Part shown: positions 1,852 to 30,184 of the stretch, piece after piece | Position numbering within the stretch: the first letter of the stretch is position 1 | Layout of the letters: each line of letters opens with the position of its first letter | IMG/VR virus record: IMGVR_UViG_3300033513_000034 | Location: 1-37,027 of that record | DNA: 37,027 nt | From: a virus | Taxonomy: Duplodnaviria; Caudoviricetes | Strand: one strand, 5' to 3' | Notes under the pieces: model-generated | The model's database searches: none | Told to the model about the DNA's origin: nothing | The model's input: only the letters and a program-made list of their open reading frames with translations | Translations under genes and position numbers: made by a program

Positions 1852-2808
1852 TTACCATGGATTCGGATTCAAGTTGCCCTGCCTGATCCAATCGATAGCC
1901 TGGATCGGGATAGGGACGCCAACCGTCGTACCACTAATACAGTTGAACCATAACTTGCCATAAGCCACTGTGGTGGTGCTACTCCCGAAGGGTGTCCAGG
2001 TTGTGCCGTTCTTGGAGAAGTAGGTGTAGTAGGTGGTATTGGTCCTGGCAATCATAAAGTAGAACGCTTCCCCGTATTGGTTAGGAGCGTGTGACCCAAG
2101 GGTGCCTGCTGGGTTGTCAGACCACAAATAACAGGAAGTGGTGGAGTAGACTCTCCAACCCACCCGGATGTAGTCGGTGCCAACGTAGGTGGTGGTGCTA
2201 TTGTTCAACGAGATCCCCATGGCCTGAGCACCAGCAGCTGGGCTGGGCACACTGGCAGGGGCAGTTGGGGTCGCACATACAATGATAGTCTTGCCAGTGG
2301 GCAGAGTATAGTTCTGGTAGAAGTAGACACCAGCGTAATTCACCTGGCACAGAAGCCAGCCGTGACGCGTAGCCAGATCGTAGATGGCAAGCGAGCCAGC
2401 TGGTTGTATGATGTTGACTACTCCGGTTGAGCCAGATACTACGGTCCACTTGCTATCCAGGGCGGAGTCTTGAAACTCCTCATCCGGTTCATCGCCGGTG
2501 GGTTTGTAGGTCAGGTCAACACTGTCATCCAGATCCTGCCCGGTTTCCAGTGGTGCGCCTCCAGAGTAGGTTTCGGTAGGAGTGGTGGTGGCTACCTGGA
2601 TAGTGTACAACACCGGACTGCCAGAAGCATAGTCCACAAACACATGATCGCCCACAGAAGGAGCCGGGCCGATTTGTGGGATGCCGTATAGGATCGAGCC
2701 ATACTCATCCCCCAGCTGGACCGTGGCACAGCCAGGCAGGGAGTCAAGCACGATCCCAGGGATGAGTTTGTTCTTCTGGAGTGCGGAAAGTGAGCGTGAC
2801 AGACTCAT
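1852..2808 (-). CDS. tail-tip / receptor-binding protein with beta-sandwich (ConA-like) C-terminal domain
   Basis: Follows the tail genes; short beta-rich N-domain (PSVGDHVFV), Thr/acidic linker, then DEEFQDSALDSKW...IDWIR typical of lectin-like sandwiches; ATGA overlap at 2805-2808. Confidence 0.55.
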   Translation of the reverse strand: MSLSRSLSALQKNKLIPGIVLDSLPGCATVQLGDEYGSILYGIPQIGPAPSVGDHVFVDYASGSPVLYTIQVATTTPTETYSGGAPLETGQDLDDSVDLTYKPTGDEPDEEFQDSALDSKWTVVSGSTGVVNIIQPAGSLAIYDLATRHGWLLCQVNYAGVYFYQNYTLPTGKTIIVCATPTAPASVPSPAAGAQAMGISLNNSTTTYVGTDYIRVGWRVYSTTSCYLWSDNPAGTLGSHAPNQYGEAFYFMIARTNTTYYTYFSKNGTTWTPFGSSTTTVAYGKLWFNCISGTTVGVPIPIQAIDWIRQGNLNPNPW

Positions 2809-3725
2809 GTTACATGCCTCCCTTGCAGGGTCTCGCTTTCCTGAGTTGGCCTCCAATTGAAACTCAGGTTCTCTGCGATGAAGTATTCACTTACGGTAGT
2901 GCCGGTGCCTGAGAGAACGTAGGACAGGTTCACCTTATCACCGATCTCGATTAGGTGGTGCAGGCGGGCATTGGCTGTGTATAGGGTGAGGCCTTCCAGG
3001 GCGCGCTGCTGGATTATCTGGGTGATAAAGTCCACGTCCGTATTGATGTTCGGCAGACGCAGGACAGCCGGGGTGAACCCCACATCACTGGCCCAACTGG
3101 TGCTCTGGACTAGCTTGGAGTAGGCGTAGTAGGCGGTGATATCACTCATGCCTGGAGTGAACCTGGTTTCCTTGCGGTGGTTGCGAACGCGGTACAGGTT
3201 CGAACTTCCCAGGTTGCCAAGGTAGGTATAAGCGACCGCTCCATTGTGACGCGGGAATAACAAGACTGGCCGCTCCTGGATGACAGACGAGATGGCATTA
3301 GCCCCGGTGCTTTCCATATCCACCCAGACCGCTTCCCGGTAAGTACCCAGCTCCCGGATGCGGATATTAGTAACGGTGATAGGGCTGGTGGCCTTGAGTT
3401 TTACGGGAGTGTTCACCAGGCACTTGGGTGGGGTGGGACAGCATGAGCCGATGCAGTGTATATCATTGTAGACCGAGATAAAGTCATCATGGATGAAGAC
3501 CCGCAGGTGAGTGATGGCAGCGGTCAGGGAGTATTTCTCCACCAACTTGGTGGCGATGATCGTTCCTCCACCGTCGAAAGCATCTGCACTGTAGAAACCC
3601 ACGTAGGTGGTGTTGATCGCAACCGTAGCTGACAGGTTGCCTATATTGATATACAGGGTCTTGCCAGTTATATCCGGCAGATCCATTGAAAGGTCCAGAC
3701 CACCAAAGACTGAGGTTGAGGTCAT
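2805..3725 (-). CDS. minor tail protein (hub-like)
   Basis: Position in tail module; C-terminal IEIGDKVNL...FIAENLSFNW resembles tail hub barrels. Confidence 0.5.
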   Translation of the reverse strand: MTSTSVFGGLDLSMDLPDITGKTLYINIGNLSATVAINTTYVGFYSADAFDGGGTIIATKLVEKYSLTAAITHLRVFIHDDFISVYNDIHCIGSCCPTPPKCLVNTPVKLKATSPITVTNIRIRELGTYREAVWVDMESTGANAISSVIQERPVLLFPRHNGAVAYTYLGNLGSSNLYRVRNHRKETRFTPGMSDITAYYAYSKLVQSTSWASDVGFTPAVLRLPNINTDVDFITQIIQQRALEGLTLYTANARLHHLIEIGDKVNLSYVLSGTGTTVSEYFIAENLSFNWRPTQESETLQGRHVT

Positions 3726-6700
3726 AAGTCGCTCCAGACAGTAGTCACATTGGTGTCAGTCACCGTGATATCGCCAGGGAATTCAGCCTTGGCGCCCAGC
3801 CCTTTGGATAGGGCATCAATGTAGTTGGTCAGGCCCATATCCTCTGTGTCCAGTGAAGAAGCATAGAAACTCTTCAGCCTCAGGGAAGCTGTGCCCTCGA
3901 AGATATAGGCCACTGTACCGGGCGGGAAGAAGGTGGATGACTGGCCGGTAGAAGCCCGGACGGTGGTCAGTGCTCCTGTCACCCAGGTATTCACGGACAT
4001 ATCATGACTGTCCGAAACGTCATCCCCTTCCAGGAACCAGCGCGAGCGGTTGAGGGTATATTCCACGGCTCCAGCATTAGTGATGAAAGGTTTCCAGTCT
4101 ACCTCATGAACCTTGTGAGCGTATCCATCGTCAAAGGCCATGACATATCCGGAATAATCATTGTAGTGGGTGGCGTTGTTCTGCCAGCGGAATAGGGATA
4201 CTTCAGCTGCCTGTTTGTAACCGTAGAAATGGTTGTCACTGCGATATGGGTTCCAGCTGGTAACGTTGCGGATCTGCCAGGGGCCTTCCGGATCCACGTA
4301 AGAGCACATGGTCGTGCCCTTGAGATCATAGGTGGTGTAACCGGTAGCACCTTCGTAGCTGAGGACACAACCATTGAGCAAAACCTGACCGGCGATGCTG
4401 AAACCCACACCCTGGGCTTCGTCAGCCGGTGTCTCCTTCCAGGCCAGCAGGGAGGAGTTGTCGGCGCTGAAGCCGACGATAGGGAAGTGCTTGGCGGTCA
4501 CTTCACCATAGATGCCGATCTTGGGAACAGCCACGGAGGATGACAGCATGCTGCCAAGTCCTGCGTCCCACAGGAAACTGCTGGAGGCGGCGCTCCAGGT
4601 GCTGGTGGTGGAGTTTAGCTCGTAGGTGGCAAAGTAGCCATCCCGGTGCTCGAACTTGATCTTGCTGAAGTTGGTGACTGTTACTTTGGGGGAGGTCTCG
4701 TAGACCAGGTTTCCGTGCTGGACAACCCGGATAAAGGATTGGATCAGTCCGGAACTAGGGGTGTGCTCGTAGGCTCCGAGGACGTAGTTTTCGGAATCTT
4801 CGGCCAGCCCGACAATCCCGTAAATGTAGTAGGACTCGGTTACAGTTGAACTTACCTCAAACCTGGCTATAGCCTGGAAGTTGACTGCGTTATAGGGGCG
4901 TTGGGAGAACAGGATGCTCGGGCCGCGCATGTTGGAGGGGTAGCAGAAATCCCAGGTGGTGGAATTGACTGTTTCCGGTATCCACATGGTGGTAGCCAAG
5001 GGCCGGACACCCACTCCGTTGTACCACATTGTCAAACGATCTGGCCGGCACCAGGTAGTAGTGTGATCATGGAAGACCACCCCGATGCTTTTGATCTTGT
5101 CACCGATCGGCAGGGAACCAGCTCCTATTTGAAAGTCCAAGGGATAGTAGCCAGTAACCGTGGTTCCCAGATAGTATTTTGGCGGGCGGCAATAGGTTGT
5201 TCCCATAAGATCGGTTGCCATGACAACTGTCTCATATTCGGTTGAGCCGCGAATGGTCTTGAAGTAAACACCCAGATCATCTACATTCAAGTTGGTTCCG
5301 GTCAGGGTGCGGGACCAGGCATAAACATTGACTATACAGTGTTGCGGGTGCATCTCCCATCCCAATGGATTTGTGTCGATGACCAGCGGATAGTCTTTCA
5401 GGCTCAGCTCGGCCTTCAGGTCTTCGATCTTGACACATACACTGTGGGTGGCAGTGGTGGCGATATAGTACATGCCCCCACCCTCAGCATAGTTTGAGTT
5501 GCTGAAGTCGATATCGATCTCAACCGGTTCCCCAGGCTGAGCGTTGAGGAAGTTGTCAACCAGGTTCAGGTCATCCCGCAGGCACTGTTTGGCAGTCAAC
5601 TCGACGTAGTTGGGATAAGAAGAACTATTCAGGATAGCCAGGCTGGAATTGGTCAGGGTCAGGTTGGGGGTGCGTATCCCATCTCCAAAGTCATAAGACA
5701 GATCTGTGATGATGAACTCACCGGCCTGGATCGGGTAATAGCCAACATCCAGCACTGGCCCAAAATCCACTGTGCAGACATTCCCAACAGCTAGCAGTGA
5801 GTTGCCGTAGAAGGCTTCATGGGGATCAGAGAGGGTCATCTGCCAAACATCATTACCGTTGGAAACTGCACCGGTCAGGGAAAGGATGCTTCCGATCGGG
5901 ATCTCCAGGCTGGAGCAGTGAGCTGGGTCGAGCCAGTAGGAGTAGGCTTCGGACTTATAGCGATCGCCGCTGGCAAAGTAGACCAGGTAGTTACTGGTAT
6001 CCAGGGCACAGCATACGTGAGCTCCAAGCTTGGAGACCGAACTCCAGCGGTTCATAGCAAAGTAGCGACCATCCGTGCTGGAGTTGATCATTGTCCATGG
6101 TGCTCTGGTGGTGTACTCGTCGGTAGTTGTCACGGCTGCGGTGCCATCTGCGCGGGCATAACTACCGACCAGAAAGATGGTGGAGTTGCTGATGAAGGAG
6201 TCCTGTACCTGGTAGGTTGACATATCCCTGGGGATGGCTACGAATACATCCGACCAGTAATCATGGGTCTTATCATAGATGCAACCCAACAGATCCCCAT
6301 CCAGGCGGCTGTAGTAAACATAGATCTTGGAACTCAGCTCGACCGCTGTAAAGTAGATCACATTCTCAGGGGCCGTATCAGCTGGCACTGTTGCAGTGTA
6401 AACGTTGTTGTGGCGGGACATAAAACGGTAGGGCATGGTGTGAGTCTGCCAGGTGCCGCTCTTATAATAGACCGTGGGCCGCGTACCGCCGTTGTCTATC
6501 CCAAGGTAAACTACCTGGGTCGCATCGGTGGGAGAAACCACTGAAAGGGAACCAGGTTCAACCTCCGCTGCGGTTACATTCTCAACAGTGAGGTTGGTAG
6601 CTCCGGGCAGGCAGTAACCGCGTTGGATGATCATGTTGGGTGAGTCAATAAAGAAGACGTAGATGTTTCCCCCACTGTAGCAAATGGCAGGCTTGGCCCA

Positions 6701-6997: not shown

Positions 6998-7420
6998 CTA
7001 GGTAGTGGTGGTGCCCATGGCAATCTGAACCTCGACCATGTACCAGGTGTTGTTGCCATCAATGATGGTACAGATAGGTTGCAAGGCTACCTGGGCATTT
7101 ATAACCTTGCAGTTGGTATGCCAGATACCCCAGTGATCAGTCATGCTGAAGAAGGGTGTGGGATTCGCATTGGGGTTATTGCGCTTCAGGATGGTCTTTA
7201 GGCGATCGTACCAGCCATAAGAAGTATCCGAGACAGTGTACGGGACACGCAGGACATAATCAAAGGACTCGTACACCCCACCGTAAGTGATATCGTAAGA
7301 CCCACTGGCGGTCTTCTCAACGTTGCGGGTGGTCTCGATGACTGGGACCATCTTGACTGCCTTGAACTTGCAGGTATAGCCACCTGTGCTTTCTACAACG
7401 GTGATGTATGAATTAGCCAT
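6998..7420 (-). CDS. putative distal tail protein (140 aa)
   Basis: Immediately downstream of the tape measure, with the size and beta character expected of Dit-like proteins. Confidence 0.5.
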   Translation of the reverse strand: MANSYITVVESTGGYTCKFKAVKMVPVIETTRNVEKTASGSYDITYGGVYESFDYVLRVPYTVSDTSYGWYDRLKTILKRNNPNANPTPFFSMTDHWGIWHTNCKVINAQVALQPICTIIDGNNTWYMVEVQIAMGTTTT

Positions 7421-10400
7421 TTAGAACATCCTTATTTCCTTGCTGGTGGTGTCGATAACGTACTTGCCAAGGAGCTCGTTGCCGATGTAGATTTTTATAA
7501 CGCTGTTTCCTCCAAGCTTGGAGGCGGTCTGTGCATACCTCGGGATGACTTCTCCAGCCCAGGGATCAGACAGCCCACGTGTGATGGCTTGCAGGGTGTT
7601 ACCTGAGATAATGGAAGTGGGGGTGATGGGGATTGCCACCTCGGGTCCATCCTCGCCAACGATGCGCGGGCTGGTAATTACCCCGCCAATGGCACTGCCA
7701 CCCTGGATTGGCACCCAGCGTCCCTTTTCCGCATCCCACCTCCAGCCTGCCCCTGGATTGTTACTGCGGTCTGTCAAAGGATCTGAAGCATCAGGTAACT
7801 CTCCACCCGTGATATCGTAAAGCTCACGCACGAAGTTGGTGATGATATCCAACACACTGATCATGTTGTTGCCCAACAACTTGGCGTTGCCCGCGGCGAT
7901 CGATTCCTGGTCGGCCATTTCGAGCAGTTTCTGGTTGGCCTCATAGGTCTTGGTGGCGAAGTAAGCCTGAGCGCCGGCCGCATCCTTTGAGAGTTGGAGT
8001 TGTTTCATCTGGTACTCGTACTGGAGCTTGCGCTCGGTTTCCTGAAGCTCAAAGCTCTTTTTGTAGAACTCTTCCTGCTTGGTCATGTACTGGCTTTGCA
8101 GGTCGTGCAGGGTCTTGTACTCGGCCTTGGCTTTATCGAACTGCTTCTGCTGGATATCCCACAACTCCTGCTGGCGGGCGCGCTGGATGTCGATCTGTCC
8201 TGTTTCCAGGTTGTAGGACATCACATCCCGCCCGCGCTGGCGCTCGGCCAGGCGGCGCTCGCGGCCGCTCATGAAGCGCACATTCTCCTCATAGTCCTCG
8301 GTGCTCCACTGGAATTGCAGTCCGCGCATCTGGGACTGGTAGCCCCAATCCTGCTGCGTCCACTGGCGGGTGCGGTTCATCTGCTGTTGCTGTTGCCCGA
8401 ACTGCCACATCTGGTACTGGTTCTGGATATCGAAAGTCTGTCTCTGATAGCCGAAACCGTACATCTGTTGCTCGTATCCGAGCTGAGCCTGTTGGGTGTT
8501 CAGGGCGAAGAACTGCGGCATGTACTCTTCCTGCAGGGCAATACCGCGCAGGGTTGCACCGATGCTTGCCATCTGGCCCTGATAGGAAAACTTGTTAGCG
8601 GCCAGCTGGGCGCCCATCGAACCACCCACTACCTGCCCGTTGCTCATGGTGTAACCTGTAACAGCCGCGTTCAGGATCGGGTTATTGGAGAGAGCTGAGC
8701 CAGCCCATCCACCACCAGGACCGACCGCGCCGGCACCCCAGACGTTGGCGGTCACCTGTTGGGCAGGGACATTACCCCACTGATAGCTGGTTGTGCCCCA
8801 TGGTAGACCGGTTTGCTGTCCTTGCAAGTTGATGTCACCAAACATCACTGGAGCAGTGGCTGGCATCCCGGTGCCAGGCCCGCCTGTGCTGGGGATCTGT
8901 CCCTGCATGGCGAGGTTAGTCCAGGCGATTGGATTACCGCTGATCAGCTGGCCGTAAAGTTGCTGGTACTGCGGCCCCATCAGATTGTAGCGGGTCACAG
9001 CACGCGCGGCGTCCATGCTACCCGAGATAGCTAGAGCTTGGTTTCCATATTCAAGAGCTTGTCTCCACTGTGGGATCTGCTCTCTACGAATACCAGGAAT
9101 TCCCCTTTCGGGAGCACCCAGGATCTGTTCGGGGATGTACCCAAGCTGGCTAGCTGGTCCAACCAGGGCCAGGCGGGCTTCGGCTGTAGTCAACTCTTTA
9201 GGGGTAGCTTTGGCAGCACCCATGCCCACACCCCACTGCAAGCCGCCAGCTTCTACACTCGTGCGCCAGCTCTCCAGCTGTTGCCGGGCTGACACAGCCT
9301 GCGGGTTCGTGAAGTCCAGGTTCAGGTTATAGTTGATCCCCATCCCCTGCCACTTCTGCCCGATGGCAGACTCGGTGGCGATCATTTGGGCGATCACCGG
9401 TGTTTGGCGATAGATATCCGCAATATCCTCATAGGGTTTAAATGGAGCACCCTCCTGCCAATACTTTCCCCTCAAAGCCAGGCCCATTTCAGGCGATAGT
9501 TGAGCCATAAACTGAGCACCGGTCTGGATCTTGGAGAGCCGGACAATATCTTCCCCAACGTATTTGGTGAGGCCTTGCTCCATGGCGCCCTGCAGTTGAG
9601 GTGTCAGGATGGCCTGCCCAGCGGCCGCCAGGGCACCAGTGATGTTCTCCATATTGACACCGGCTGTTCGCATGTTGGCCGAGAACTGGATCTGCTCTTG
9701 AGTAGGGACAACCCCAGCCTTGGCATACATGGAAGATACCTGTTGAGCGATATCAGGACCATACTGTTTGTAGAAGCCGGAGACTGACTCTCCGGTAATG
9801 CCAGCCGTGATGAGATCGGGACGGTTCCTTAGACTGGTAGTGAGCGGGACACCGGAAGTCCTTTGTTGGGTAATGGCATTTTGCAAGAGCGCCATATCAA
9901 CCTTTTCCTGAGTAGTGCCGAACAGGTTGACTTTCATAGTGTTCCAGGCGAACTTGCTATCACCATAAACATCGGTGGCGGCGCCTGTCAGGGCTGTGCC
10001 AGGGTCCATCCTGGTTCCAGCCACCATAAGACCGGTCGCCCCAATGACACCTGCAGCGGCACCTATCCCGATCCCAACCGGTCCAGTCATGGCAATTGCG
10101 GCGGGTGTGCCAGCCGTAAGCATTGAACCAAGCCACAGGGACATCATCGATCCAGCAACTGCGCCTGCACCGACACCGCCTATATCTCGGGCCACGGAAG
10201 GAGCATTGGCACCAAGGCGCTGGATAGCCGCGCCAGCACCACCACCGTAAGCGATCTGAGCCTGCCGGACTACATTGGCAGTGGACTCATAGGGCATGGC
10301 CCCAGGAACGTAGCCCAACAGTCCTTGAGCTGATTGGGATAGAAACTGGTCGGCTTGCTGTTGGCCGTATTCCATAAAGCCCAGCGGCATCTGCGCCAGG

Positions 10401-13400
10401 CGGGACATATACATCAGACCCCAGCCACCTAGTACGTTGCGGGCCATGTGTCCCAGGGTAGCACCTGAGATACCGCCGCCCCGACCTTCCATCTCAAAAG
10501 CCTTGAGCCTACCTTCGGCTTTGGAGACTGCTTCCCCGGCTTCACCGTACTTGTAAAGCAAGTCTGTCATGGTCGCCCGAGGGACCTCTTCGATACCACC
10601 CCATTGGGCGATAGTTTCATCCAGGATTGCTTTAGCCGCTCTTTGCCTTGGCATCAGGTTCTTGGCGATATCCTGCTTAGTGAGCTCGACGTTATACTCA
10701 CGCTCAGCCTTGGCACGTTCTCCCACAGACTTGCTGGAGTCATTCATGGTCTGGGCAAGCTCTTTGATCCTGGCATTGAACTTGTCGATTGTTTCAACCG
10801 ACTCTTTGACCTCCTTCATACTCATCGTGCCTTCTTCGGCAGCTTTGGAAGGTCTCTCCAGACCCAGGGCAGCTTTGCCCTCCTGCAAAAGACGACCGGC
10901 CATGGCGGCCTGTCCCAGAGGTGTTCCCCCGGTGGTGATACCGGTTACGGTTGGGAGCAGGGTGGCATCCTCAGTCTTGTAGCCAGCATTGAGCATGCCC
11001 TCCATGGTATAGGCATCCCCCATCAGGTTGGAGAAACCGCGGATCATTTGGGGATTCCGGACGCTGAACATACGCAGGGCGGCTTGTCCCTGAAGTGTTC
11101 TAGCTCCCTGCATGATGGCTTGCTGCATATTTACTTGACCCTCACCAGTACCGATGCTGATGTTGGCACCGGTAGCCGTGAAGGCAGCTTGCAACCTGGC
11201 CTGGAAAGTCTCTATCTTGGGTTCATTGATCCCGGCTTGAGTGAGGACACTGAATTCCTGAAGTGCCCCCTTTACCTGGTCGGGTGAACCACCACCCCAA
11301 ATAGCTCGCATGGTGGCACCCTCAAAACCACTCTTGATACCGCTTGCGATCATGCCAGATAAGCCTTTCATCCATTCCGGCATGCCCTCATCGTCGCCCG
11401 CGGCGGCTACTGTGCCTTCCCCACCAATGTCCCCACCCTTGCCACCACCTGTGGTTTGACCGGCCTTGCCACCCCGGATGTAAGTTCCCGTTTTGGGAGC
11501 GCGGTGGGCGGCCTTGGGATGTAAGATCCCGCCTACCAGATCCTTGATATCCTCGCCCTTGGCACCGGCATAGGTCTGAAGAGTAGGTAGGTTAGTTTTG
11601 ATGGCGGCTGGCTTCTCCATTTCGGATACCTGCCCCAAAGCACCAACCAGCATGGTTGACATCGTTTCCAGATCGACTGGAGCTGTGGCTTCTCGGCCAC
11701 CAGGTCCACCTACAATACCGAAGGCTTCGGGAGATTGACCGGTGGCTTCGAACCATCCAGCTGCTACCTTGCGAGCTTCGACTTCCCCCTCGTCCCTGAG
11801 GCCACGAAACTGCTTACTTTCTCTGATCCAGGGTTTCATGGTTTGATAGAATAACTCACCCTGTTCTTGAGTAGTCTTACCCATTTCAAGTGCCCGTTCT
11901 CGGGCGCCGTATAGGATACCAAGGTAAGCGGCTGGTTCCAGACCAATGCCGGGGGTCTGGGCTAACTGTGCCACATCTGCGTTTACATCGGTGGTGTACT
12001 TGGCCTCGATGGCAGTGAGTTTGCCACCCACCACATTCATGATATCCGGCTTGCCGCTGATCATTCTTCTAGGACTGGCTCTGGCTACGTCTTCAGCCGT
12101 AACTGCACCTGGCGCGATGGCCTGCAGACCGCGCAAAAAATAGGATTCAGGGATACGCACAGTTCCCTGTGGTCCACCAGGTCCAATCTGTGAAGCCACC
12201 AATGGTTCGCCAGCATAACGGGCAGAGAGAGTTTCCTCAAACTTCCCGCCAGCTTCCGTGGCAGCAGTTTTAGCAGAGCTGAAGATCTTCTGGTATTGCT
12301 CTGTTGGCATACCGATAATACGGGCTAGAACCTCCATGGGGGCACGAGCATTGATCTGGCTCTGAATAGTTTGGGAATAAGGGGAGGGGACACCCAGAAT
12401 ACCCTGGAACATAGAGGCTGAAATGCTGTACTCGCTTACCGGGTACTGTTGCCCACCAGCCACGGCTGTGCCTTCAGCAGTAGCTTCACCGGGAAATATC
12501 TTCTGTAACTGCCGGATAGCGGCCGGGATCTGGCCTTCACGACCGGCATATTTCTCGGCTACAGCCTGGTTGAGCATCGCCATCTCTTCTACAGTCGGGG
12601 TGGCGCTGCGCTGTTTCATACTTTGATAAAGCACACGTGCTGCTCCTACCGGACCACCTTGGGCCAGCTCACCAAAGGTCATCCCAAAGGGACCGGGAAT
12701 GGTCTCGGAGAATGGCCCCAGGTTGACCTCAGACCCACCTACCATACGAGCTTTGCCAAGTCCTTCCCCTCCGATCAGGGCATTGGTGACAGCCGCAGTC
12801 AGACCGGCCAGCCCCAAGGGACTTGACAGGGGATCAGCGCCTTTGGGGAACACATCCCGCAAAGCTACACCTACACCCTGTCCGGTTTTTTGGCGAGCGA
12901 CAATAGCTGCTTCCAGCTGGGTCATCTGCTCAGGGGTGGAGGTAGCTGGCGCGGCTAGGAAGGCTTTGGTGTGCGGGTCGAGATCGGCTTCGTTTAGGAC
13001 ACCGCCGATGAAGTTGCGGTACTCGTCCCAATAGTCATTGGCAACTGCTTCTCCCTGAGAGTAACGCTTCTGGCTATTCCATAAAGGAGTCCAGCGTTTG
13101 TCCTTGGCACTGCCTTTTGCCAGGAAGATCAGGTTGTTCGTGCCCTCTTCTATACCGAAAGTGGCTGTGGATAGGAAGGTCTCAATGCTGGATTTGCCGC
13201 CGCGTTTCTGGATCAGGCCAGTCATGACATCCAGATAAGGTTGGTATTCCTGTGCTAGCCCGCGTGTGCCAGCCACCGGGTTCTCCTGAGTGCCCAGAAC
13301 GGCCCCAGAAGCCCGTAGCATGCGCATGGCATTGAACATGGTCCCTTTCCCAAAGGAGGCCTGCATGGTCAGTGCAGACGTTTCCAGGGTCTCGGCGCGG

Positions 13401-16400
13401 GACTTGGCGCGGCCTTTGCTTGGATCAAAGGGGTCTTGACCACCCTCTTCCACCAGACTTTGATACATATTGCTGATGATGTTGTACTGCTCATGCTTCT
13501 CGCCAAATACAGACATCAATGAACGACTGATAGCAGTACCGGTATCGCCCATCTGCGGGATGAGTTTCTGAACGTGTTCCGGGATATGTAGACCCTTTTG
13601 TGGATCGGCAGTCACAATCCCCATGGCGATCATCTGGTCCAGGTCCCAATCACCTACCTGGGTAGCCGAGCGTAAACCAATGGCAAGAGGAGTACCAGTT
13701 GCCTCAGGATTACCAGGAATGATCTGGCCGGCATTGGTGACACGGGTTGCTTCAGCGTACTGTGCCCCGTATTTTCTGGCCGCCATCTTGGGAGTGATGA
13801 TACCCACGCCAGTGATACCGGCTTCACCTTCATAATAAGGTGAACGCATGAAAGCACCAGGCAGGTAGCCCCACTGTTCGATCTGTGCTTCGGCCTTGCC
13901 CCTCCAAGCTTGGAGTTCTTCACCCTGTAAACCAGTGGATTGTCCAAGCGCCCCCAGGATCTTCTGATATTGATCCTCCTGCATCAGCATCATACCGGGT
14001 GGGATGCCGGCCACGTTCTTGTAACGCCCCGACTCAGCGGCACGTGAGTACCAGCTGGAGACTTCTCCCAGGACGGTATGGGAGCTAGCAAGTTGACCGG
14101 CCAGGAGATCGTAACGGGCTGTTTGGCGGGATGGTCCAGCGCCACCAGCAAAAGAAGCCACGGCAGGTAGATAGGTGTGACCGATACCGGAAATGGCTTG
14201 AAAGGCTACATCGTCCTCTTTGGTTCCAGTGCGGCCCCACTTGATGATCTTCTCCATCGGTTCTGGTCCGAGCATGTAGCGTCCACCACGTTCCAGGATA
14301 TCAGCCCCACCAGCCGCCTCACGCGCCATTTCCCAACCACCAGCTCCCAGGGCAGCCGCGCGCTGGAGCTTGGTAGCCATTTCCTCATTCACGGTGCCGA
14401 TCTTCAGTCCTAGAGCCGCGGCGGCTTCTCCGATGGGGTAGGCTTTGCCATAGGTCTCCATCGAGCGGGTATAGCGTTCAGCGGTCAGCATGGCCTGCAT
14501 GGCAGGGATGTGGCCGGGGGTGTAGGATGGTAATCCTTCAAGCAGTCCAGGCACAGCAGTCTGAGCCAGCTCTAAGGCACTTGGGCCTAAACGGGCTTGC
14601 TTGGCCGGATATTCAGCAGCGCGTTGAGCAGCCTGAGGCGCGATGGTCCAGTTGCCAAACTCGCTGTAAACACCGGAAGTGGGGTCGTAGCCGATGTAGT
14701 CGTACCAGTTCTTACCTTTAGGTAAGTTGCCCTGCAGTGCACCACGCCGGATCTCGAATTCCTCCTGGGTCATGCGGGTAACTGGCATCCAGGTATTGGG
14801 CATACTGGCTACACCAAACTGGCGGTAGGTATCCTGTGGGTTCATCTGGTTCAGGGCACCGATGGTAAGCTCCATGGCTTTGTAGTAACCTGACTTGGGA
14901 TCCTCGCCAAAGAATGAGCCCACGATATTTGGGTTGAGTGCTACAGCCTCCGGGTTTTTAGCCCCTTGCCGGTTCTGGATGACATACTGCTCAGCCTGCG
15001 TGAAAGCACTGGCGGCTTGAGCATTTCCGGCTTGCTGGTAGAAACTGCCCACGGCCTGGAAGAGATTGGCTTGCTGGGTGGAAGTCAGCGAGCCCACCAC
15101 ACCGAAACCGAACTGCTGTAAGGGAACCTTGGTGATGTTGCCAGCCCCGCCCAGGGACACACGTGTGCCACCTCCACCCTCGCCGCGAATGACCGTTTCG
15201 AAGTCCATGGCTGAACTGTTGGCGAACTGTGCCACGAGGGTTTCACCACCCTTCAACCCAAGCGACTTAGGCTCAGCACCCACCGTGCTATAAGCGCCCA
15301 GGAACAGGTTTACATCGGCAGTCTGCCGGCCGAGCAGGTTGACACCCTGAAGATCCAGCGAGCCAAAGGTATTGGCGGCTGTGCGGAAACCAGGCCCACC
15401 AGTCAGGGAACCCGAACCCTCCCTGACATTGAAGAACTTGGGGGCGGTCATGGAGATCGAGGCGCCCTGCTCTAGATAGGCATCACGTTCAGGTGTGAAG
15501 GTCAAGGGGAACTGCTTACCGCCCTGGAGTGTGACCATGCCGATGGTGGCTGAGACACCGGCTGGATAAGCCCGGTTGCCAATATCGCCAGTCCTCTGCC
15601 AGGCATCGCCCTCGCCCCGTTGGAAGAGACCCGACTCAACCTTGGCATAAGCCCAATCGGCTACGTTGATCTGGGGTGCATCCAGCGTGACCTGCTGGCG
15701 AATGGTGTTGGCGATTACTTGCCCTTCCTGCCCGGCCTGGCTGACGTTCTGCTGGAAAACCCACTGAGAGCCGGATTTGCTTTCACCGCCGATCGCCATT
15801 CCCTGCCGTACCAGTGCTTCGATGGGAGTACCTTCGAAGGATAGGACGTTCAGGGTACGGAAACCCTGCTGGCCTGCTTCAGTGATTGGGTTATAAGCGG
15901 CCGGCTTGATTTCGCCGCCGCGCCCGAGCATAATCGGGGTGGTCATACGGGCAGTCTCTTCGGTCACGCGAGTACGCTTGGGATCGAAGAAACCGAGTGG
16001 GATCAGGGCTTCCCCTTGCTTGGGTTCAGGGACATAACCGCTGGTGACGCTCAGGATCAGTTGTTCCTGCGGCGAAAGTGGGGTAGTGCCCTGCCGCCGT
16101 TGCATTTCCAGGTCATTACCCAGACCGTACAGAAAACTCAGTGCGTCCGGTTTCTGGACACCCTTGCCGTAACGGATCGGGATGGCTTGACCCAGGAAGG
16201 CCGTAAAACCAGCCTCTTCCTGCACGTTGCTCATGAAACGCTTGCCAACCTGGCTACCTACCTCGGCTACCCGTAGGGTGCTCCAGATGTCATTAGGGGT
16301 AGTAGCGCCGCGGGACTTGAAAGGTGAAGTTCCCAGGGCCGTGGACACCCGATCCATAAATGAGGTCTCGGCTGTTCGAACCTGAACATCCTGTTCGCCG

Positions 16401-16660
16401 GTAAAAGCGATGGTGGGACCGTGGTGCCAAACATAATCGCCCTGTTTCGTCCCCTCCAGGAGCTCCTGTCCCATCTCAGTGGTTTGCCCGGCAGCCAGGT
16501 TCAAGACAAGCGCACGTGTGCCTTTGCGGAAGGTGACTTCCTGGAATCCACCCTCTTCGCGGCCGAATTCAAGCTCGATCCTGGCCTTCCTGCCGGTGAA
16601 CATTTTGGTGAGTGTTTCCCGCAGGTTGACGCCGGACGAATATGGCAGTCTGCTAGGCAT
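7421..16660 (-). CDS. 3079-aa tape measure polyprotein with N-terminal RNA polymerase-like region and PD-(D/E)xK nuclease-like domain
   Basis: Canonical position after tail tube and frameshifted chaperones. C-terminal AIGGVITSPRIVGEDGPEVAIP, hydrophobic Gly/Ala helices and Q-rich aromatic-periodic coiled coil indicate a tape measure. SGR(879), RSP(939) and DWDLD(1004-1008) are RNAP-like; PD(1538-39)...EAK(1552-54) is nuclease-like. Confidence 0.85.
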   Translation of the reverse strand: MPSRLPYSSGVNLRETLTKMFTGRKARIELEFGREEGGFQEVTFRKGTRALVLNLAAGQTTEMGQELLEGTKQGDYVWHHGPTIAFTGEQDVQVRTAETSFMDRVSTALGTSPFKSRGATTPNDIWSTLRVAEVGSQVGKRFMSNVQEEAGFTAFLGQAIPIRYGKGVQKPDALSFLYGLGNDLEMQRRQGTTPLSPQEQLILSVTSGYVPEPKQGEALIPLGFFDPKRTRVTEETARMTTPIMLGRGGEIKPAAYNPITEAGQQGFRTLNVLSFEGTPIEALVRQGMAIGGESKSGSQWVFQQNVSQAGQEGQVIANTIRQQVTLDAPQINVADWAYAKVESGLFQRGEGDAWQRTGDIGNRAYPAGVSATIGMVTLQGGKQFPLTFTPERDAYLEQGASISMTAPKFFNVREGSGSLTGGPGFRTAANTFGSLDLQGVNLLGRQTADVNLFLGAYSTVGAEPKSLGLKGGETLVAQFANSSAMDFETVIRGEGGGGTRVSLGGAGNITKVPLQQFGFGVVGSLTSTQQANLFQAVGSFYQQAGNAQAASAFTQAEQYVIQNRQGAKNPEAVALNPNIVGSFFGEDPKSGYYKAMELTIGALNQMNPQDTYRQFGVASMPNTWMPVTRMTQEEFEIRRGALQGNLPKGKNWYDYIGYDPTSGVYSEFGNWTIAPQAAQRAAEYPAKQARLGPSALELAQTAVPGLLEGLPSYTPGHIPAMQAMLTAERYTRSMETYGKAYPIGEAAAALGLKIGTVNEEMATKLQRAAALGAGGWEMAREAAGGADILERGGRYMLGPEPMEKIIKWGRTGTKEDDVAFQAISGIGHTYLPAVASFAGGAGPSRQTARYDLLAGQLASSHTVLGEVSSWYSRAAESGRYKNVAGIPPGMMLMQEDQYQKILGALGQSTGLQGEELQAWRGKAEAQIEQWGYLPGAFMRSPYYEGEAGITGVGIITPKMAARKYGAQYAEATRVTNAGQIIPGNPEATGTPLAIGLRSATQVGDWDLDQMIAMGIVTADPQKGLHIPEHVQKLIPQMGDTGTAISRSLMSVFGEKHEQYNIISNMYQSLVEEGGQDPFDPSKGRAKSRAETLETSALTMQASFGKGTMFNAMRMLRASGAVLGTQENPVAGTRGLAQEYQPYLDVMTGLIQKRGGKSSIETFLSTATFGIEEGTNNLIFLAKGSAKDKRWTPLWNSQKRYSQGEAVANDYWDEYRNFIGGVLNEADLDPHTKAFLAAPATSTPEQMTQLEAAIVARQKTGQGVGVALRDVFPKGADPLSSPLGLAGLTAAVTNALIGGEGLGKARMVGGSEVNLGPFSETIPGPFGMTFGELAQGGPVGAARVLYQSMKQRSATPTVEEMAMLNQAVAEKYAGREGQIPAAIRQLQKIFPGEATAEGTAVAGGQQYPVSEYSISASMFQGILGVPSPYSQTIQSQINARAPMEVLARIIGMPTEQYQKIFSSAKTAATEAGGKFEETLSARYAGEPLVASQIGPGGPQGTVRIPESYFLRGLQAIAPGAVTAEDVARASPRRMISGKPDIMNVVGGKLTAIEAKYTTDVNADVAQLAQTPGIGLEPAAYLGILYGARERALEMGKTTQEQGELFYQTMKPWIRESKQFRGLRDEGEVEARKVAAGWFEATGQSPEAFGIVGGPGGREATAPVDLETMSTMLVGALGQVSEMEKPAAIKTNLPTLQTYAGAKGEDIKDLVGGILHPKAAHRAPKTGTYIRGGKAGQTTGGGKGGDIGGEGTVAAAGDDEGMPEWMKGLSGMIASGIKSGFEGATMRAIWGGGSPDQVKGALQEFSVLTQAGINEPKIETFQARLQAAFTATGANISIGTGEGQVNMQQAIMQGARTLQGQAALRMFSVRNPQMIRGFSNLMGDAYTMEGMLNAGYKTEDATLLPTVTGITTGGTPLGQAAMAGRLLQEGKAALGLERPSKAAEEGTMSMKEVKESVETIDKFNARIKELAQTMNDSSKSVGERAKAEREYNVELTKQDIAKNLMPRQRAAKAILDETIAQWGGIEEVPRATMTDLLYKYGEAGEAVSKAEGRLKAFEMEGRGGGISGATLGHMARNVLGGWGLMYMSRLAQMPLGFMEYGQQQADQFLSQSAQGLLGYVPGAMPYESTANVVRQAQIAYGGGAGAAIQRLGANAPSVARDIGGVGAGAVAGSMMSLWLGSMLTAGTPAAIAMTGPVGIGIGAAAGVIGATGLMVAGTRMDPGTALTGAATDVYGDSKFAWNTMKVNLFGTTQEKVDMALLQNAITQQRTSGVPLTTSLRNRPDLITAGITGESVSGFYKQYGPDIAQQVSSMYAKAGVVPTQEQIQFSANMRTAGVNMENITGALAAAGQAILTPQLQGAMEQGLTKYVGEDIVRLSKIQTGAQFMAQLSPEMGLALRGKYWQEGAPFKPYEDIADIYRQTPVIAQMIATESAIGQKWQGMGINYNLNLDFTNPQAVSARQQLESWRTSVEAGGLQWGVGMGAAKATPKELTTAEARLALVGPASQLGYIPEQILGAPERGIPGIRREQIPQWRQALEYGNQALAISGSMDAARAVTRYNLMGPQYQQLYGQLISGNPIAWTNLAMQGQIPSTGGPGTGMPATAPVMFGDINLQGQQTGLPWGTTSYQWGNVPAQQVTANVWGAGAVGPGGGWAGSALSNNPILNAAVTGYTMSNGQVVGGSMGAQLAANKFSYQGQMASIGATLRGIALQEEYMPQFFALNTQQAQLGYEQQMYGFGYQRQTFDIQNQYQMWQFGQQQQQMNRTRQWTQQDWGYQSQMRGLQFQWSTEDYEENVRFMSGRERRLAERQRGRDVMSYNLETGQIDIQRARQQELWDIQQKQFDKAKAEYKTLHDLQSQYMTKQEEFYKKSFELQETERKLQYEYQMKQLQLSKDAAGAQAYFATKTYEANQKLLEMADQESIAAGNAKLLGNNMISVLDIITNFVRELYDITGGELPDASDPLTDRSNNPGAGWRWDAEKGRWVPIQGGSAIGGVITSPRIVGEDGPEVAIPITPTSIISGNTLQAITRGLSDPWAGEVIPRYAQTASKLGGNSVIKIYIGNELLGKYVIDTTSKEIRMF
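7509..7524. repeat. 16-bp palindrome CCTCCAAGCTTGGAGG (3' end of tape measure gene)
   Basis: Exact copy. Confidence 0.95.
13901..13916. repeat. palindrome variant CCTCCAAGCTTGGAGt (inside RNAP-like region)
   Basis: 15/16 match. Confidence 0.85.
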
Positions 16661-17435: not shown

Positions 17436-18512
17436 TTAGGTGGGCCACACGTAGCTGGTGTTGGTGTTGCCCAGGTTGACGGTATAGGCTGCACCGCTGG
17501 TAGGAGCGATGACCGTCCCGGTCAGTCTCATCATGACCGAACCGTTGCCTGCCAGCCGGATGCCACCATTCATCTGGTACATAACGTTATCCGAGCGAAC
17601 CCGAAGCTGCCAGGGCGTGGTCAGGATCGCCAGGCGGCTGGAAACGCACAGCACATCCAGGTTCGCCACGTAGGGCGCCATGGTCCAGGACATACCGCTG
17701 GTGGTGCCGGTCATCAGTTTCTTGTAGAGCTGAGGATCTTCCCACTTGATGATCAGATCCACTGCCAGCGAGCGGGCGATGATGGTGATGTCCTGAAGGT
17801 ACGGATCGCCGTAAACCCGTTCCTGGCGCATATCCAGTGGAGCATTGGCGAAGGTCAACGTGCCGGCTACGATCGGGAGATCAGATCCTGAGAAGGATGG
17901 GATCTGCATGTAACCAGTGGTGACGCACCCAATTGGGATCGACTGGTAATCTTCCCAGTTGGTATTGGTGTAGGTCCAGGCCGTGGGATCAGCATAGCTT
18001 GGCATGCAGCCCAGAACATCCACGCGGGAGGTGATCAGGCCATCGTTGGGCAGACCCAGGGTGAAACTGATGATCTTGGTGTCCCGGAAAACCTCACCCA
18101 TGGCCGAGGCCGTATTCGTGCCAGGGGTGTACTTGCGCCAGGTCATCCAGGGCAGGTAGGTTGAGTCGGAAGCAAAGGTGAAACCGTGATTGAAGAAACC
18201 AGTCACGGTTGTTCCGAGAACGTCCTGGTTGGCTGTGGTAGCCACGGCGCCTACCGCGCCGTACAGCAGCCATCCCAGGGTGTTTTGCAAACGAGGCAGA
18301 AGGGTCGCACCACCCGCAGCCACCACACCAGCCCGGTAAGGGATGGTCGGAACGGGCTGGCCGCCGACTTCTGGCGGGCCGAGCCGGTCATCCGAGATGG
18401 TGCTCAGATCGATGTCGGAAGCGCGGTGCTTGTAGAAAGTGGTGGAAGCGGCTGTTCCCTTGGCAGGTTGCGGCCCAAAAGAGAGAACACCATTCATTGC
18501 GGTGATAGCCAT
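17436..18512 (-). CDS. major tail (tube) protein
   Basis: 358 aa, Thr/Gly-rich beta protein upstream of the chaperones; ends VNLGNTNTSY; AAGGAG RBS. Confidence 0.75.
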   Translation of the reverse strand: MAITAMNGVLSFGPQPAKGTAASTTFYKHRASDIDLSTISDDRLGPPEVGGQPVPTIPYRAGVVAAGGATLLPRLQNTLGWLLYGAVGAVATTANQDVLGTTVTGFFNHGFTFASDSTYLPWMTWRKYTPGTNTASAMGEVFRDTKIISFTLGLPNDGLITSRVDVLGCMPSYADPTAWTYTNTNWEDYQSIPIGCVTTGYMQIPSFSGSDLPIVAGTLTFANAPLDMRQERVYGDPYLQDITIIARSLAVDLIIKWEDPQLYKKLMTGTTSGMSWTMAPYVANLDVLCVSSRLAILTTPWQLRVRSDNVMYQMNGGIRLAGNGSVMMRLTGTVIAPTSGAAYTVNLGNTNTSYVWPT

Positions 18513-23032: not shown

Positions 23033-24511
23033 TTAGCCCTTTTTAGTGTTTACGGTGATGCCAGGTGAGATCTGAAACAACCCAATCTCGTCCAGGCAGT
23101 CGTAAAACCATTTTGAGTGGTCAAAGTGCATCGGGTACAGGTCTTGCTGCCCGAAGTTGACCGTGAAATACAGATACCCGCCGCGTTTCAAAACGCGGCC
23201 TATAGCTTTCAGCATTTCCCGCAGGGGTTCAGCCGGGATATGCTCGAAGACCTCGAAGGATACAACAGCTTCGTAACTATTGTCCGGCACCTTGGTTTCC
23301 CAGCTAGGATCGCCGTACAGGATCGAGCCCAGCCGCTCGTAGCCGGTCAGCAGGTTACGGGTGGTCTTTTCCCGCAGTTTGGAGAAGTCCTGCAGCAGTT
23401 TGTTGGTTTCGATGGACAGGACGTTGTTGCGCTGGAACATGAGCTGGATCGAGACCGTCCCGATGCCGGAACCGATCTCCAGCACGTTCTGATCCCAGAT
23501 GGGGGTGATCTGCTCCTGCAGGCTCTTGAAGGTGTTGGTGTAGTTCCAGTGCAGCAGTTCCATGATGTACTTCTTGCCCGTTTCGGGGTTGGAGTACCAC
23601 TCGTGGACCTCACGCGGCTTGGCGGTGCGGTTGCCGAAGCACTCGCGCCAGTAATCGCCGGCGTCGTGTGGTGTGCCTTTATCGATCTCGGTTTTGGCCT
23701 GCTCCAGTGAGATTTCGTAGAAGTCCTTGTACCACGTGGCTGCGGCTTCCGGGGTGTACTGTGACATAGCCATGCCGCGGTGACGATATCCAGCCTCGAA
23801 TTGGCCGACCGAGATAGGAACATCCAAATAATGGCCGGAAATGAGTGAAAGATCGCAAACGACCGGATAACCGGTCTCCTTGGCTTCAGCGCAGAACACC
23901 AGGTCTTCCGAGTTGCCGCCAGGCCGGTATTCGAAGATGGGTTGCGGCATTTTCTCCAAAACGGAGCGGTGGATCATCATACAACCGGTGGCGACCGCAT
24001 CGCAGTACAAAAGCGGATCGGTGGAGCACTCCTTGACCCAGATCGGGCCATCGGTGGGAGGAATGTGGTTCTGGATGATGAAATCGTGCACCTCGTCGTA
24101 CATGGGCGCCCACAGTTTCCCCATACGTCCATAACCGTCCTTACGATCGTTACAGCGCCGGAAACAGAAGGGTTCGTGGCTGGATCCTCGGTGGAAGTAC
24201 AGAGCGCCGATGATCGGGAGTTTTCGGCCCACCAGGATCTCGCCGCACATGACCGGGTGCTCCATATCCGAGTCAAGCATCAGCAGCCAGTCGGGTTTTT
24301 GGGGCAGGCTGAGAAAAACCTGGATAATGCTGTCCCGGTTATGGTCCACGCGGTGTCCGGAGGCGGGAATCAGGCCACCTTCAGCCATCAGGCCGCGTTG
24401 GGCCAGGTGTGCGATAATAACATCGCGATTATTGACGAAAGCGGGCATCATGGTGCGTTCGACCGGTATTCCGATCGCAATCAGGTTGTTTTTTATCTCT
24501 AAGGGTTCCAT
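23033..24511 (-). CDS. GT-A (GT2-like) glycosyltransferase fused to class I SAM-dependent methyltransferase
   Basis: N-half WLLMLDSD (DxD), ATGCMMIHRSV, SEDLVFC; C-half VLEIGSGIG, FEVFEHI, RVLKRGG. Confidence 0.85.
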   Translation of the reverse strand: MEPLEIKNNLIAIGIPVERTMMPAFVNNRDVIIAHLAQRGLMAEGGLIPASGHRVDHNRDSIIQVFLSLPQKPDWLLMLDSDMEHPVMCGEILVGRKLPIIGALYFHRGSSHEPFCFRRCNDRKDGYGRMGKLWAPMYDEVHDFIIQNHIPPTDGPIWVKECSTDPLLYCDAVATGCMMIHRSVLEKMPQPIFEYRPGGNSEDLVFCAEAKETGYPVVCDLSLISGHYLDVPISVGQFEAGYRHRGMAMSQYTPEAAATWYKDFYEISLEQAKTEIDKGTPHDAGDYWRECFGNRTAKPREVHEWYSNPETGKKYIMELLHWNYTNTFKSLQEQITPIWDQNVLEIGSGIGTVSIQLMFQRNNVLSIETNKLLQDFSKLREKTTRNLLTGYERLGSILYGDPSWETKVPDNSYEAVVSFEVFEHIPAEPLREMLKAIGRVLKRGGYLYFTVNFGQQDLYPMHFDHSKWFYDCLDEIGLFQISPGITVNTKKG

Positions 24512-26208: not shown

Positions 26209-27846
26209 CTACCGTCTATAACTACGTAGGGTTCGTCTTGCAACAATGCGTTTTCGACCCTGGACAGCCCCTTCAAGAGCTTCTGAACGATTTTGAGCAA
26301 CCATATCCTCAAGCGCAACATTGAAAAACCTCCTGATTCCGAAAGCGGACATACTCATACAGGCTACGATGTCCTGGGCGATCTTCTTGTCCTCTTCGTA
26401 CTCGTAATTGGTGAGCTGGGCGCGTATCCCGCCGATAAACTGCGGCCACTGCAGATGAGTGCCTTCCAAAAGCAACCGGAGCGAGATCAAATAGGTCACT
26501 TTCTGCCCGCCGCTGAAGTCCATACCCTGGATGCCGCGCACGATGCCCATAGGGGAGACGTAACCATAACGGTACTCGCTGTCCTCGGCTTCCTGGGCCC
26601 GTTCGAAGCGTTTCCGGAACAAGTGCTCGTTGATCAGCTGGGCGGTGTTCTTCTGCGGACCGGTGGAATCGATGCCGGTGGCGATCGGTGAGTACAGATC
26701 CATCAAATCAAACATCTTATCTACAAAAGGATGGATCGAGCTGTGACCGAAACCCCACCAGAAGTTAGCCAGCTGAGCGCAGCGACTAGGGAAGTTATCC
26801 GGGATCTCCCACATCATCAGGACCGGCGCATTGCGTTTGGGAGCATCGTCGATGCCCGGATCGCCAAAGAGCATATAAATATGGCCTTTTCGAGGCGGGA
26901 GTTGCCAGGAGACGATGCCAGCGCCCTGCACCTTCCGCACGGCATAACCGGCCTGGTTGATGTTCTCCAGCGTGATCTGGTTCAGGATCTGGCTTTCGCA
27001 AGCCGAAACGCTCTCCTTGCTGAAATAATGACCGCGGCCTTCGGGTCGTGTTCCATCAATAAAGCGTTCGCGTTGGTCCTCGGGGATACGGGCCAGCATG
27101 CGCCGCAGCTGGTTGGGAGTGACGTTCAGGTTATCACGTGAGCTGACGACGATCGACAGGTAGTTTTCGGGATCACTGGCAGCCATATCGAAGTAGTACC
27201 AGAAATACCAGTTTTCCCAGGGGTTGGAGGTCATACTGAAGCGGCCCAACCGTTCCCGGCCCTGGATGGTGCCACGCAGACGGGAGCCGACATTGGTGAT
27301 CGTGCCTTCCAGGTCTTCGATCTGGGCGGCCTCATCGATATTCAGCCAATCGCCTTCCCAGCCCAGGATAGCATTAGCGTTCTTATCCACCGACATAAAC
27401 TCCATGGTGGACTCATGCAACTCGTTCCCGATCTTATAGCGAATGATGATCTTGGGGTAGGGTGCCTTGTAAAACGTCATCAGGTCAGCAGCGCGGGTGT
27501 TCTTGGACCAATCCATCAGCTTCTCGAACATCAGGTTGGACTGCCATAGGGTTTGGGCGGCGTTCAGGAACTTGAAGTCATTCGTTTCCATACCCCAGAA
27601 CCAACCGCCCATCCCGATCCCCAGCGTCTTGCCGCTTCCGAATCCCCCATCTACCACGATGTCTGACTGAGCCGCCAGGCACACGTGTTCCTGCCACTTG
27701 CCTTGATCCCGAAAGTTATCGTCGAATATCCATCCTTTCTCGGCACCGGGCTTCTTGAAGAAGTAGTTGGTGACGAGCGATGGATGCTGTTGTCCCTCCC
27801 GCAACAACTCGATCTCTTCGGGAGTTAGAACGACGACCCTGGGCAC
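26209..27846 (-). CDS. terL: terminase large subunit
   Basis: Walker A GGFGSGKT, Walker B WLNIDEAA, coupling motif TSNP, RNase H-like FGDPG, GIDSTG and QDIV. Confidence 0.92.
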   Translation of the reverse strand: MPRVVVLTPEEIELLREGQQHPSLVTNYFFKKPGAEKGWIFDDNFRDQGKWQEHVCLAAQSDIVVDGGFGSGKTLGIGMGGWFWGMETNDFKFLNAAQTLWQSNLMFEKLMDWSKNTRAADLMTFYKAPYPKIIIRYKIGNELHESTMEFMSVDKNANAILGWEGDWLNIDEAAQIEDLEGTITNVGSRLRGTIQGRERLGRFSMTSNPWENWYFWYYFDMAASDPENYLSIVVSSRDNLNVTPNQLRRMLARIPEDQRERFIDGTRPEGRGHYFSKESVSACESQILNQITLENINQAGYAVRKVQGAGIVSWQLPPRKGHIYMLFGDPGIDDAPKRNAPVLMMWEIPDNFPSRCAQLANFWWGFGHSSIHPFVDKMFDLMDLYSPIATGIDSTGPQKNTAQLINEHLFRKRFERAQEAEDSEYRYGYVSPMGIVRGIQGMDFSGGQKVTYLISLRLLLEGTHLQWPQFIGGIRAQLTNYEYEEDKKIAQDIVACMSMSAFGIRRFFNVALEDMVAQNRSEALEGAVQGRKRIVARRTLRSYRR

Positions 27847-29871: not shown

Positions 29872-30099
29872 CTACCCTCCGGAGATCGGCGCCGCTAGAA
29901 TTATCTTTTCCAGATCCGGATCGAACTTGGTGATCATCTCCCCCTGCGCTCCACCTTTCTTGACCGCAAAGGCTTTGTAACCCTTGGTAGTCAACTTGTC
30001 AAAGGTGTCCCGAGCTGCCTGCACTTCATCTTTCTTGTCTACATCCCAGATCAACTTCGTGTCACCACTACCACCCATGATACGCATTACGTGTGCCAT
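29872..30099 (-). CDS. hypothetical protein (75 aa), first gene of the leftward region
   Basis: AAGGAG RBS; coupled to 29250..29870. Confidence 0.7.
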   Translation of the reverse strand: MAHVMRIMGGSGDTKLIWDVDKKDEVQAARDTFDKLTTKGYKAFAVKKGGAQGEMITKFDPDLEKIILAAPISGG

Positions 30100-30130
30100 C
30101 TTTTCATCTCCTTTCTCTCATTTGCCGCTT

Positions 30131-30139
30131 ATTTTATCA
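30131..30139 (-). promoter_or_regulatory. extended -10 element TGATAAAAT heading the leftward region
   Basis: About 30 nt upstream of the ATG at 30099, leaving room for the RBS. Confidence 0.55.
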
Positions 30140-30184
30140 TAGGATACCTGTACCCCTATATGAGATCTGCGTCGCAAAAAATGG

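Follow-up and report, generated by a model that had tools for sequence, protein, structure and literature searches.

A two-barrel RNA polymerase carried at the N-terminus of a tape measure protein has, in the literature searched, been published only for the Thermus phage P23-45 and its relatives. The sections of PMC10770324 cited here describe the P23-45 protein, gp96, as an active enzyme which is present at full length in virions, which lacks a clamp and has a disordered connector at residues 613-679, and which works together with a second polymerase, gp64; they also propose that the flat, clamp-less body of gp96 is what allows it to pass through the tail. Apart from a single review comment, a word search of the supplementary material of PMC10770324 turned up neither tape measures nor metagenomic contigs, and the unlabelled accessions in that material may include members of the family described below. 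For the active polymerase gp66 of phi14:2, a phage of crAss-like type, the cited part of bioRxiv 2020.03.07.982082 ties the catalytic loop DFDID, whose fourth residue is not glycine, to a self-inhibited form, and gives a connector of about 140 aa.

The present work concerns a 37,027-nucleotide stretch of viral DNA, referred to as the window, whose minus strand is the morphogenesis region of a phage. Terminase, portal, scaffold, major capsid, tail tube and two small genes run in this order ahead of a giant ORF (Table 1), the portal, scaffold and major capsid being named by PHROGs matches. The giant ORF is one continuous reading frame in the window's ORF list, and it is the longest gene after the tube and the chaperone-sized genes and before the distal-tail genes, where the 140-aa gene is followed by a gene of 1088 aa. 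Relatives show the same gene order around the ORF in this slot: the 148-aa and 101-aa small genes are conserved in 109 and 101 loci respectively, and the 140-aa gene is kept at the distal-tail position in 9 loci. The giant protein has no match in Pfam or PHROGs, tape-measure families included, and none of 17 slot proteins has a tape-measure match in Pfam, so that the tape-measure label is given because of gene position, with no profile to back it. The features of the C-terminal third that suggest a tape are the motif RxxxGG[FW]GLMY at aa 2074-2085, found in 24 of 36 slot sequences, many of which are cut short, a hydrophobic segment at aa 2187-2215, and a Gln-rich stretch near aa 2700-2850.

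Table 1. Features of the giant ORF and its surroundings (window positions).
Feature	Position	Strand	Basis or remark
Terminase	26209-27846	-	Precedes giant ORF
Tail tube gene	17436..18512	-	PF18906 E 2.3e-5, under curated cut-off
Two small genes, 148 + 101 aa	16653..17377	-	Tail-assembly-chaperone position; putative function
Giant ORF, 3079 aa, cysteine-free	7421..16660	-	Siphovirus tape-measure slot; gene order
Module predicted to be a single-chain two-barrel RNA polymerase, aa 1 to ~1200	13061..16660	-	Conservation and model of aa 195-1195
Beta-like half, aa ~240-691	14588..15943	-	Beta-rich in model; boundaries estimated from model secondary structure
KxxGxK motif, K465/K470 in PKSLGLKG, aa 464-471	15248..15271	-	Family consensus KGxGxK
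Connector or clamp-like region, aa ~692-868	14057..14587	-	Mostly high pLDDT (above 83)
Predicted catalytic beta'-like double-psi barrel, aa 869-1062	13475..14056	-	R879, R939-x-P941, GDWDLD
Palindrome CCTCCAAGCTTGGAGG, 16 bp	13901..13916		One of 10 copies; repeat scan
DWDLD catalytic loop, D1004/D1006/D1008	13637..13651	-	Conserved; predicted role
Predicted bridge helix, aa 1088-1122	13295..13399	-	35-residue model helix, pLDDT ~52-65; family MGxxYN
Predicted trigger-loop helix, aa 1126-1144	13229..13285	-	Putative role, from position; family YQxxLD
Candidate PD-(D/E)xK nuclease motif, aa 1521-1564 (GKPD...IEAK)	11969..12100	-	PF12705 in homologues, same place
Likely tape part, aa ~2050-3079	7421..10513	-	Motif, hydrophobic segment, Gln-rich stretch
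140-aa gene	6998..7420	-	Distal-tail position, directly after giant ORF; putative function

The preliminary description of this DNA had picked out PKSLGLKG, ESGRY, AFMRSP and DWDLD in the giant protein's N-terminal part as the marks of a polymerase, and all four are found at the residues that it gave (ESGRY at aa 876-880, AFMRSP at aa 936-941, and DWDLD, the sole DxDxD of the 3079-aa protein, within QVGDWDLDQMIAM at aa 1001-1013). Direct homologue searches, and viral contigs scanned with the core, returned the giant protein itself only, and relatives were therefore sought by capsid and tube, the family being defined as the ORF that fills this slot in the syntenic phages found in this way. A DxDxD lies at aa 940-1500 in 59 of the 62 slot ORFs of at least 900 aa; the remaining three are cut by the contig end after 1011-1111 aa, and two of these, once aligned, stop short of the Asp column. 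Collapse at 90% left 36 non-redundant homologues with 12-21% identity to the window protein. The proposed check on the three aspartates, the two lysines and the two arginines came out in favour of the reading, with D1004, D1006 and D1008 present in 36/36 homologues, K470 in 36/36, K or R at position 465 in 34/36, R939 in 35/36 and R879 in 30/36, where the trimming of the rows relative to DxDxD makes the Asp columns partly selected, unlike those of K, R and P. Conservation extends to P941 (36/36), G1003 (34/36) and K511 (32/36), to G297 and E683 in the beta-like half, and to D1144 (33/36), Y1139 (32/36) and Q1140 (29/36).

DWDLD had been taken for an unusual catalytic loop, a view that does not survive the comparison: the family as a whole has a loop GDxDxD, in which positions 2 and 4 vary freely and of which DWDLD is a variant that recurs in a second family member (L264). 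The fourth loop residue is glycine in 3 of the 36 homologues and something else in 33. That non-glycine residue, the variation of R879 in 6/36 and the existence of one relative that manages without a polymerase module could be read as signs of an inactive relic of the polymerase fold, with a structural or nucleic-acid-binding role. Such a relic is highly improbable, since at 12-21% identity the residues that stay invariant are only those of catalytic type, and since phi14:2 gp66 is reported, in the cited part of bioRxiv 2020.03.07.982082, to be active with DFDID.

A held-out set was obtained from a wider capsid scan, which gave 12 new distinct slot ORFs of at least 875 aa after one duplicate, two shortened ORFs and one locus not reaching the slot had been left out. 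Eleven of the twelve carry DxDxD at aa 753-1150, the exception being the locus L178 discussed below, and shuffled sequences contain 0-0.15 DxDxD per protein. Against the core profile, eight of these eleven ORFs score E-values of 1e-40 to 6e-8, and the remaining three give weak values of 6e-4, 0.023 and 2.5. Four later sequences (L192, L200, P0002 and L264) have both DxDxD and a profile match, and one later homologue search added a single protein; the searches covered part of the protein library, and the family size is a lower bound.

The protein's N-terminal part had been described as globular rather than tape-like, which is borne out by structure prediction and not by amino-acid composition, in which this part does not separate from the rest. 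AlphaFold2 run without an alignment gave a pLDDT of 35.5; with an alignment of 52 rows, aa 195-1195 were modelled at a pLDDT of 79.3 and a pTM of 0.78. The lower end of the module, formerly put at nt 13500, has been moved to about aa 1200 (nt 13061), because the earlier limit leaves out the predicted bridge helix and trigger helix. A Foldseek search of the PDB, suggested earlier as a check, produced no match at E <=0.001 (best 2e-3, beta chains at 0.004), and all PDB matches listed are RNA polymerase entries, of both beta and beta' chains. In a Foldseek-independent fold search over 48,161 chains, ranks 1-15 are all two-barrel polymerases, including QDE-1, Pol II, Pol I, M. tuberculosis beta', archaeal A', phiKZ, AR9, vaccinia and P74-26 gp62, and rank 16 is the CDC48 N-domain; the VIA Z values are modest (9-10, just 2-3 above unrelated rows), and the matches listed cover mainly the beta'-like half of the model. 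BFVD contributed four phage models at E <0.001, followed by crAss-like giant proteins at E 0.004-0.017.

The double-psi barrel that was expected of the model is present in its catalytic half, where it aligns to beta' and archaeal A' barrels: model residues 675-868 (aa 869-1062) match E. coli beta' 345-503 with Z 9.9 and rmsd 4.1 over 140 residues, and the archaeal A' barrel (317-487) with Z 9.2 and rmsd 2.3 over 106 residues. R879 and RxP sit on predicted strands, and the order of strands around R879, RxP and DxDxD fits the double-psi topology of beta'. The putative beta-like barrel is supported by lysine conservation and by whole-chain alignments, those of the single-chain enzymes QDE-1 and gp62 starting at model residues 32-80 and spanning both halves. 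The conserved lysines of one half and the aspartates of the other may come together in a single active site, which the pTM of 0.78 supports indirectly. In many rows the alignment pairs model residues 542-675 with the N-terminal region of beta', with an rmsd of 6-7 A. Since model residues 929-935 align to beta' 803-810, in the bridge-helix part of beta', the helix at aa 1088-1122, whose end falls at beta' ~807 in several alignments, is read as a predicted bridge helix; the pLDDT of the bridge and trigger region is 42-73.

If the motifs were coincidental and the fold something other than a two-barrel polymerase, blank sequence searches would be natural, as would modest Z values and Foldseek E-values; the order of the motifs, their invariance and their recurrence in the held-out set speak against coincidence, as do the confident model and the fact that its 15 best matches are all two-barrel polymerases, and this explanation is close to refuted. 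Conservation and predicted fold thus agree with the earlier proposal that a two-barrel RNA polymerase is fused to the N-terminus of the tape-slot protein, and the module very likely folds as a two-barrel polymerase whose active site is intact.

The earlier assessment of this polymerase as very divergent is confirmed: PDB searches by phmmer and profiles, Pfam, PHROGs and tblastn against INPHARED all gave no known-polymerase match, and an ESM Atlas feature search was blank. The module represents a new, deeply divergent family of predicted single-chain polymerases which is invisible to sequence searches of Pfam, PHROGs and the PDB. The suggested comparison with P23-45 gp96 by hhalign showed no link (probability 0.1-0.3%), on which ground homology to gp96 is rejected, and neither gp96 (8H2M/8H2N) nor gp66 is among the best 50 fold matches listed, an absence that is compatible with structural likeness. 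The two designs are alike in having a single-chain two-barrel polymerase, predicted in the case of the window, in the ~1,200 N-terminal residues encoded by the tape-measure gene, and in sharing the gene order and a hydrophobic segment downstream of the polymerase. They differ in the connector (some 180 aa, for the most part ordered in the present model, against the 67 disordered residues described for gp96), in the loop (GDxDxD(P) against DFDGD, as given for gp96), in length (2,600-4,260+ aa against 5,002 aa) and in the companion polymerase gp64 described for P23-45, of which no counterpart was found in the polymerase-bearing genomes. To judge from the model, the window polymerase seems to keep a clamp-like connector, unlike gp96; it would work like gp96 and is not filed in the gp96 family. 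The clamp-bearing case, if true, argues for unfolded travel through the tail rather than for a flat body, and at least 50 divergent phages with a tape-borne two-barrel polymerase and no detectable kinship to gp96 imply a recurring design rather than one lineage.

The best whole-chain match is Neurospora QDE-1 (7y7p, Z 9.6, rmsd 4.3, 229 residues, model residues 80-927), which ties with cellular beta' subunits within 1 Z. A long connector is common to the window polymerase and to QDE-1 and plant RDR2, which are single-chain two-barrel polymerases of RNAi; the identity to QDE-1 is 9%, and the window protein stands in a context of phage structural genes. Both halves also match P74-26 gp62 / P23-45 gp64 in fold (8f5m, Z 7.3, rmsd 5.1, 234 residues), a stand-alone enzyme of about 600 aa which is absent from virions, whereas the window polymerase is fused to the tape. 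With phi14:2 gp66 the window polymerase shares a single chain, probably of virion type here as well, the non-glycine fourth loop residue and a connector (~140 aa in gp66); no sequence link exists between the two proteins, and gp66 is a cargo protein of a podovirus, not a tape measure.

The N-terminal ~1,200 aa are likely to be an injected transcriptase fused to the tape. The giant gene would be expressed late, together with the tail module, and the chain would be built into the virion and packaged with the tail; on infection it would exit through the tail and refold at the host membrane, tethered to the tape part, and the polymerase would transcribe the DNA that enters first and perhaps help to draw it in. 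Before delivery the polymerase may be kept in a self-inhibited state by the non-glycine fourth loop residue, a role suggested for that of phi14:2 gp66; the family varies naturally at this position, and its polymerases can be directly expressed and assayed. Later phage genes would rely on the host polymerase because no second phage polymerase was found. The profile gives exactly one polymerase match in each genome that has a match, and a motif scan of ORFs >350 aa detected no second polymerase in the polymerase-bearing genomes, a scan which a very divergent enzyme could escape. In two complete relatives, Pfam found no polymerase subunit, sigma factor or integrase among 130 of the 159 ORFs of at least 110 aa, structural genes having been dropped and three border-spanning ORFs skipped. 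A sigma-70 promoter scan of window positions 29900-37027 is at chance level (10 against 7.9). As to the host, genome scans with the tube gave no match and those with the capsid two MAG contigs, and no cultured member was found by INPHARED tblastn or the genome scans.

Delivery through the envelope bears on a second explanation, in which an active two-barrel polymerase is cut from the tape at tail assembly and acts in the producing cell, in late transcription or priming, instead of being injected. Tape measures are often processed, conservation is low in the linker at aa 1200-2000 (identity of about 10% per 100 aa), and the complete relatives have no second phage polymerase, all of which would suit such an enzyme. 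It would gain little as a late-only enzyme from the fusion, however, and the polymerase module is, like the tape part, without cysteine, which suggests passage through the envelope: the 36 slot proteins contain 6 Cys in 96,056 residues, compared with 1.0% in 20 other window genes, a scarcity that would fit a chain which crosses the envelope. The polymerase-less relative is also without cysteine, so that the absence of cysteine marks ejection and not polymerase function. With gp96 described as full-length in virions (PMC10770324, in the sections cited), cleavage and action in the producing cell are unlikely, and injection remains the preferred reading.

A further feature of the window, with at most a conjectural link to the polymerase, is the palindrome CCTCCAAGCTTGGAGG. 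Its other copies lie at window positions 1076, 6021, 7509, 17400, 22366, 31004, 33749, 35602 and 36561, and the 10 matches within 3 mismatches compare with 0.27 expected in the window. Two copies overlap ribosome-binding sites, two lie within longer hairpins, and one is directly upstream of TGTATAAT. Of the 14 genomes that bear the polymerase, twelve each possess a perfect palindrome family peculiar to them, with 5-22 copies against 1-2 in shuffles, and two have a weaker one; the polymerase-less genome G006 and P23-45 have no palindrome family above shuffles, and neither do 16 of 30 partial loci have a repeated one. Inside ORFs lie 165 of the 258 sites, against a background of 82-88%, and the sites have no conserved flanks. 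That these palindromes are chiefly hairpin promoters of the early region was rejected, since they are genome-wide, symmetric, mostly in ORFs and not universal; they are more likely to be operator-like sites for a dimeric protein. Cluster O mycobacteriophages have 17-bp dyad repeats, given as of unknown function in the cited part of PMC4351075, which resemble the present ones as short palindromes repeated across the genome and partly within genes, and which differ in that the sequence here is particular to each phage and the majority of sites fall within ORFs. A separate 18-nt inverted repeat with a 100-nt spacer occupies window positions 31029-31164, in a non-coding interval that precedes the plus-strand genes.

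The palindromes also bear on the possibility that the polymerase is injected and active and that its main job is mechanical or non-messenger, such as genome pulling by repeated initiation, or the making of primers or short RNAs, perhaps at palindromes. A polymerase tethered to a membrane-inserted tape would be suited to such work, QDE-1 is the closest whole-chain fold, and the dispersed palindromes accompany the polymerase in 12/14 genomes and are missing from G006. Yet this contrast depends on a single polymerase-less genome, the sites are symmetric, without conserved flanks and in 165/258 cases within ORFs, the 16/30 partial loci have no repeated family, and Cluster O mycobacteriophages have comparable repeats (PMC4351075, in the part cited); a mainly mechanical role is accordingly quite improbable, and early transcription by the injected enzyme is the reading retained.

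The slot protein varies in its cargo. PF12705 was detected in 10 of 13 motif-picked homologue segments, 7 of them above the cut-off; the window's own segment has no Pfam match and scores E 0.023, a weak value, against a profile of the homologue segments, and the region after the polymerase is a candidate nuclease domain by these sequence criteria. The relative without a polymerase (L178, 14223-21323; G006:C1:41726-50533) has a 2,935-aa slot protein which shares its C-terminal part with the window protein (E 1e-23), and its aa 574-633 match Sigma70 region 2 with E 1e-4 on the segment and 22.5 bits against a cut-off of 24. The same genome encodes a stand-alone 753-aa protein (G006:C1:5223-7484; L223) with RYP, GDFDGD and the downstream motifs IAN and IAVDGIK, which has no relevant Pfam match, belongs to PHROG 34895 (unknown function) and is a candidate non-virion two-barrel polymerase on its motifs. 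A search for further polymerase-less relatives gave only L262, with a weak tube match.

A more speculative synthesis, which we consider doubtful as a whole, is that in this uncultured siphovirus clade the tape is a modular vehicle for an independently acquired, clamp-bearing, self-inhibited polymerase which serves as the only phage transcriptase, which is often joined by a nuclease, and which in one relative is replaced by a sigma-factor-like piece and a polymerase gene that stands alone. Taken to its boldest, the idea is that membrane-tethered re-initiation at the phage's own palindromes every 3-7 kb would winch the whole genome in.

Several minor observations concern individual loci. L262:11677-13161 is a distant relative whose slot ORF is just 495 aa long and cysteine-free. 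At L013:7842-8741 there is an extension N-terminal to the polymerase which by eye is DEDDh exonuclease-like and has no Pfam match, and L031:11796-20807 carries a Hint (intein-like) domain at aa 2771-2902, close to the slot protein's C-terminus (PF07591, E 1e-12). In the window, a 492-aa fusion of a glycosyltransferase-like part and a methyltransferase is encoded between portal and scaffold (23033-24511, minus strand), and clusters of glycosyl- and methyltransferase genes occur in two complete relatives; these genes possibly serve in capsid decoration.
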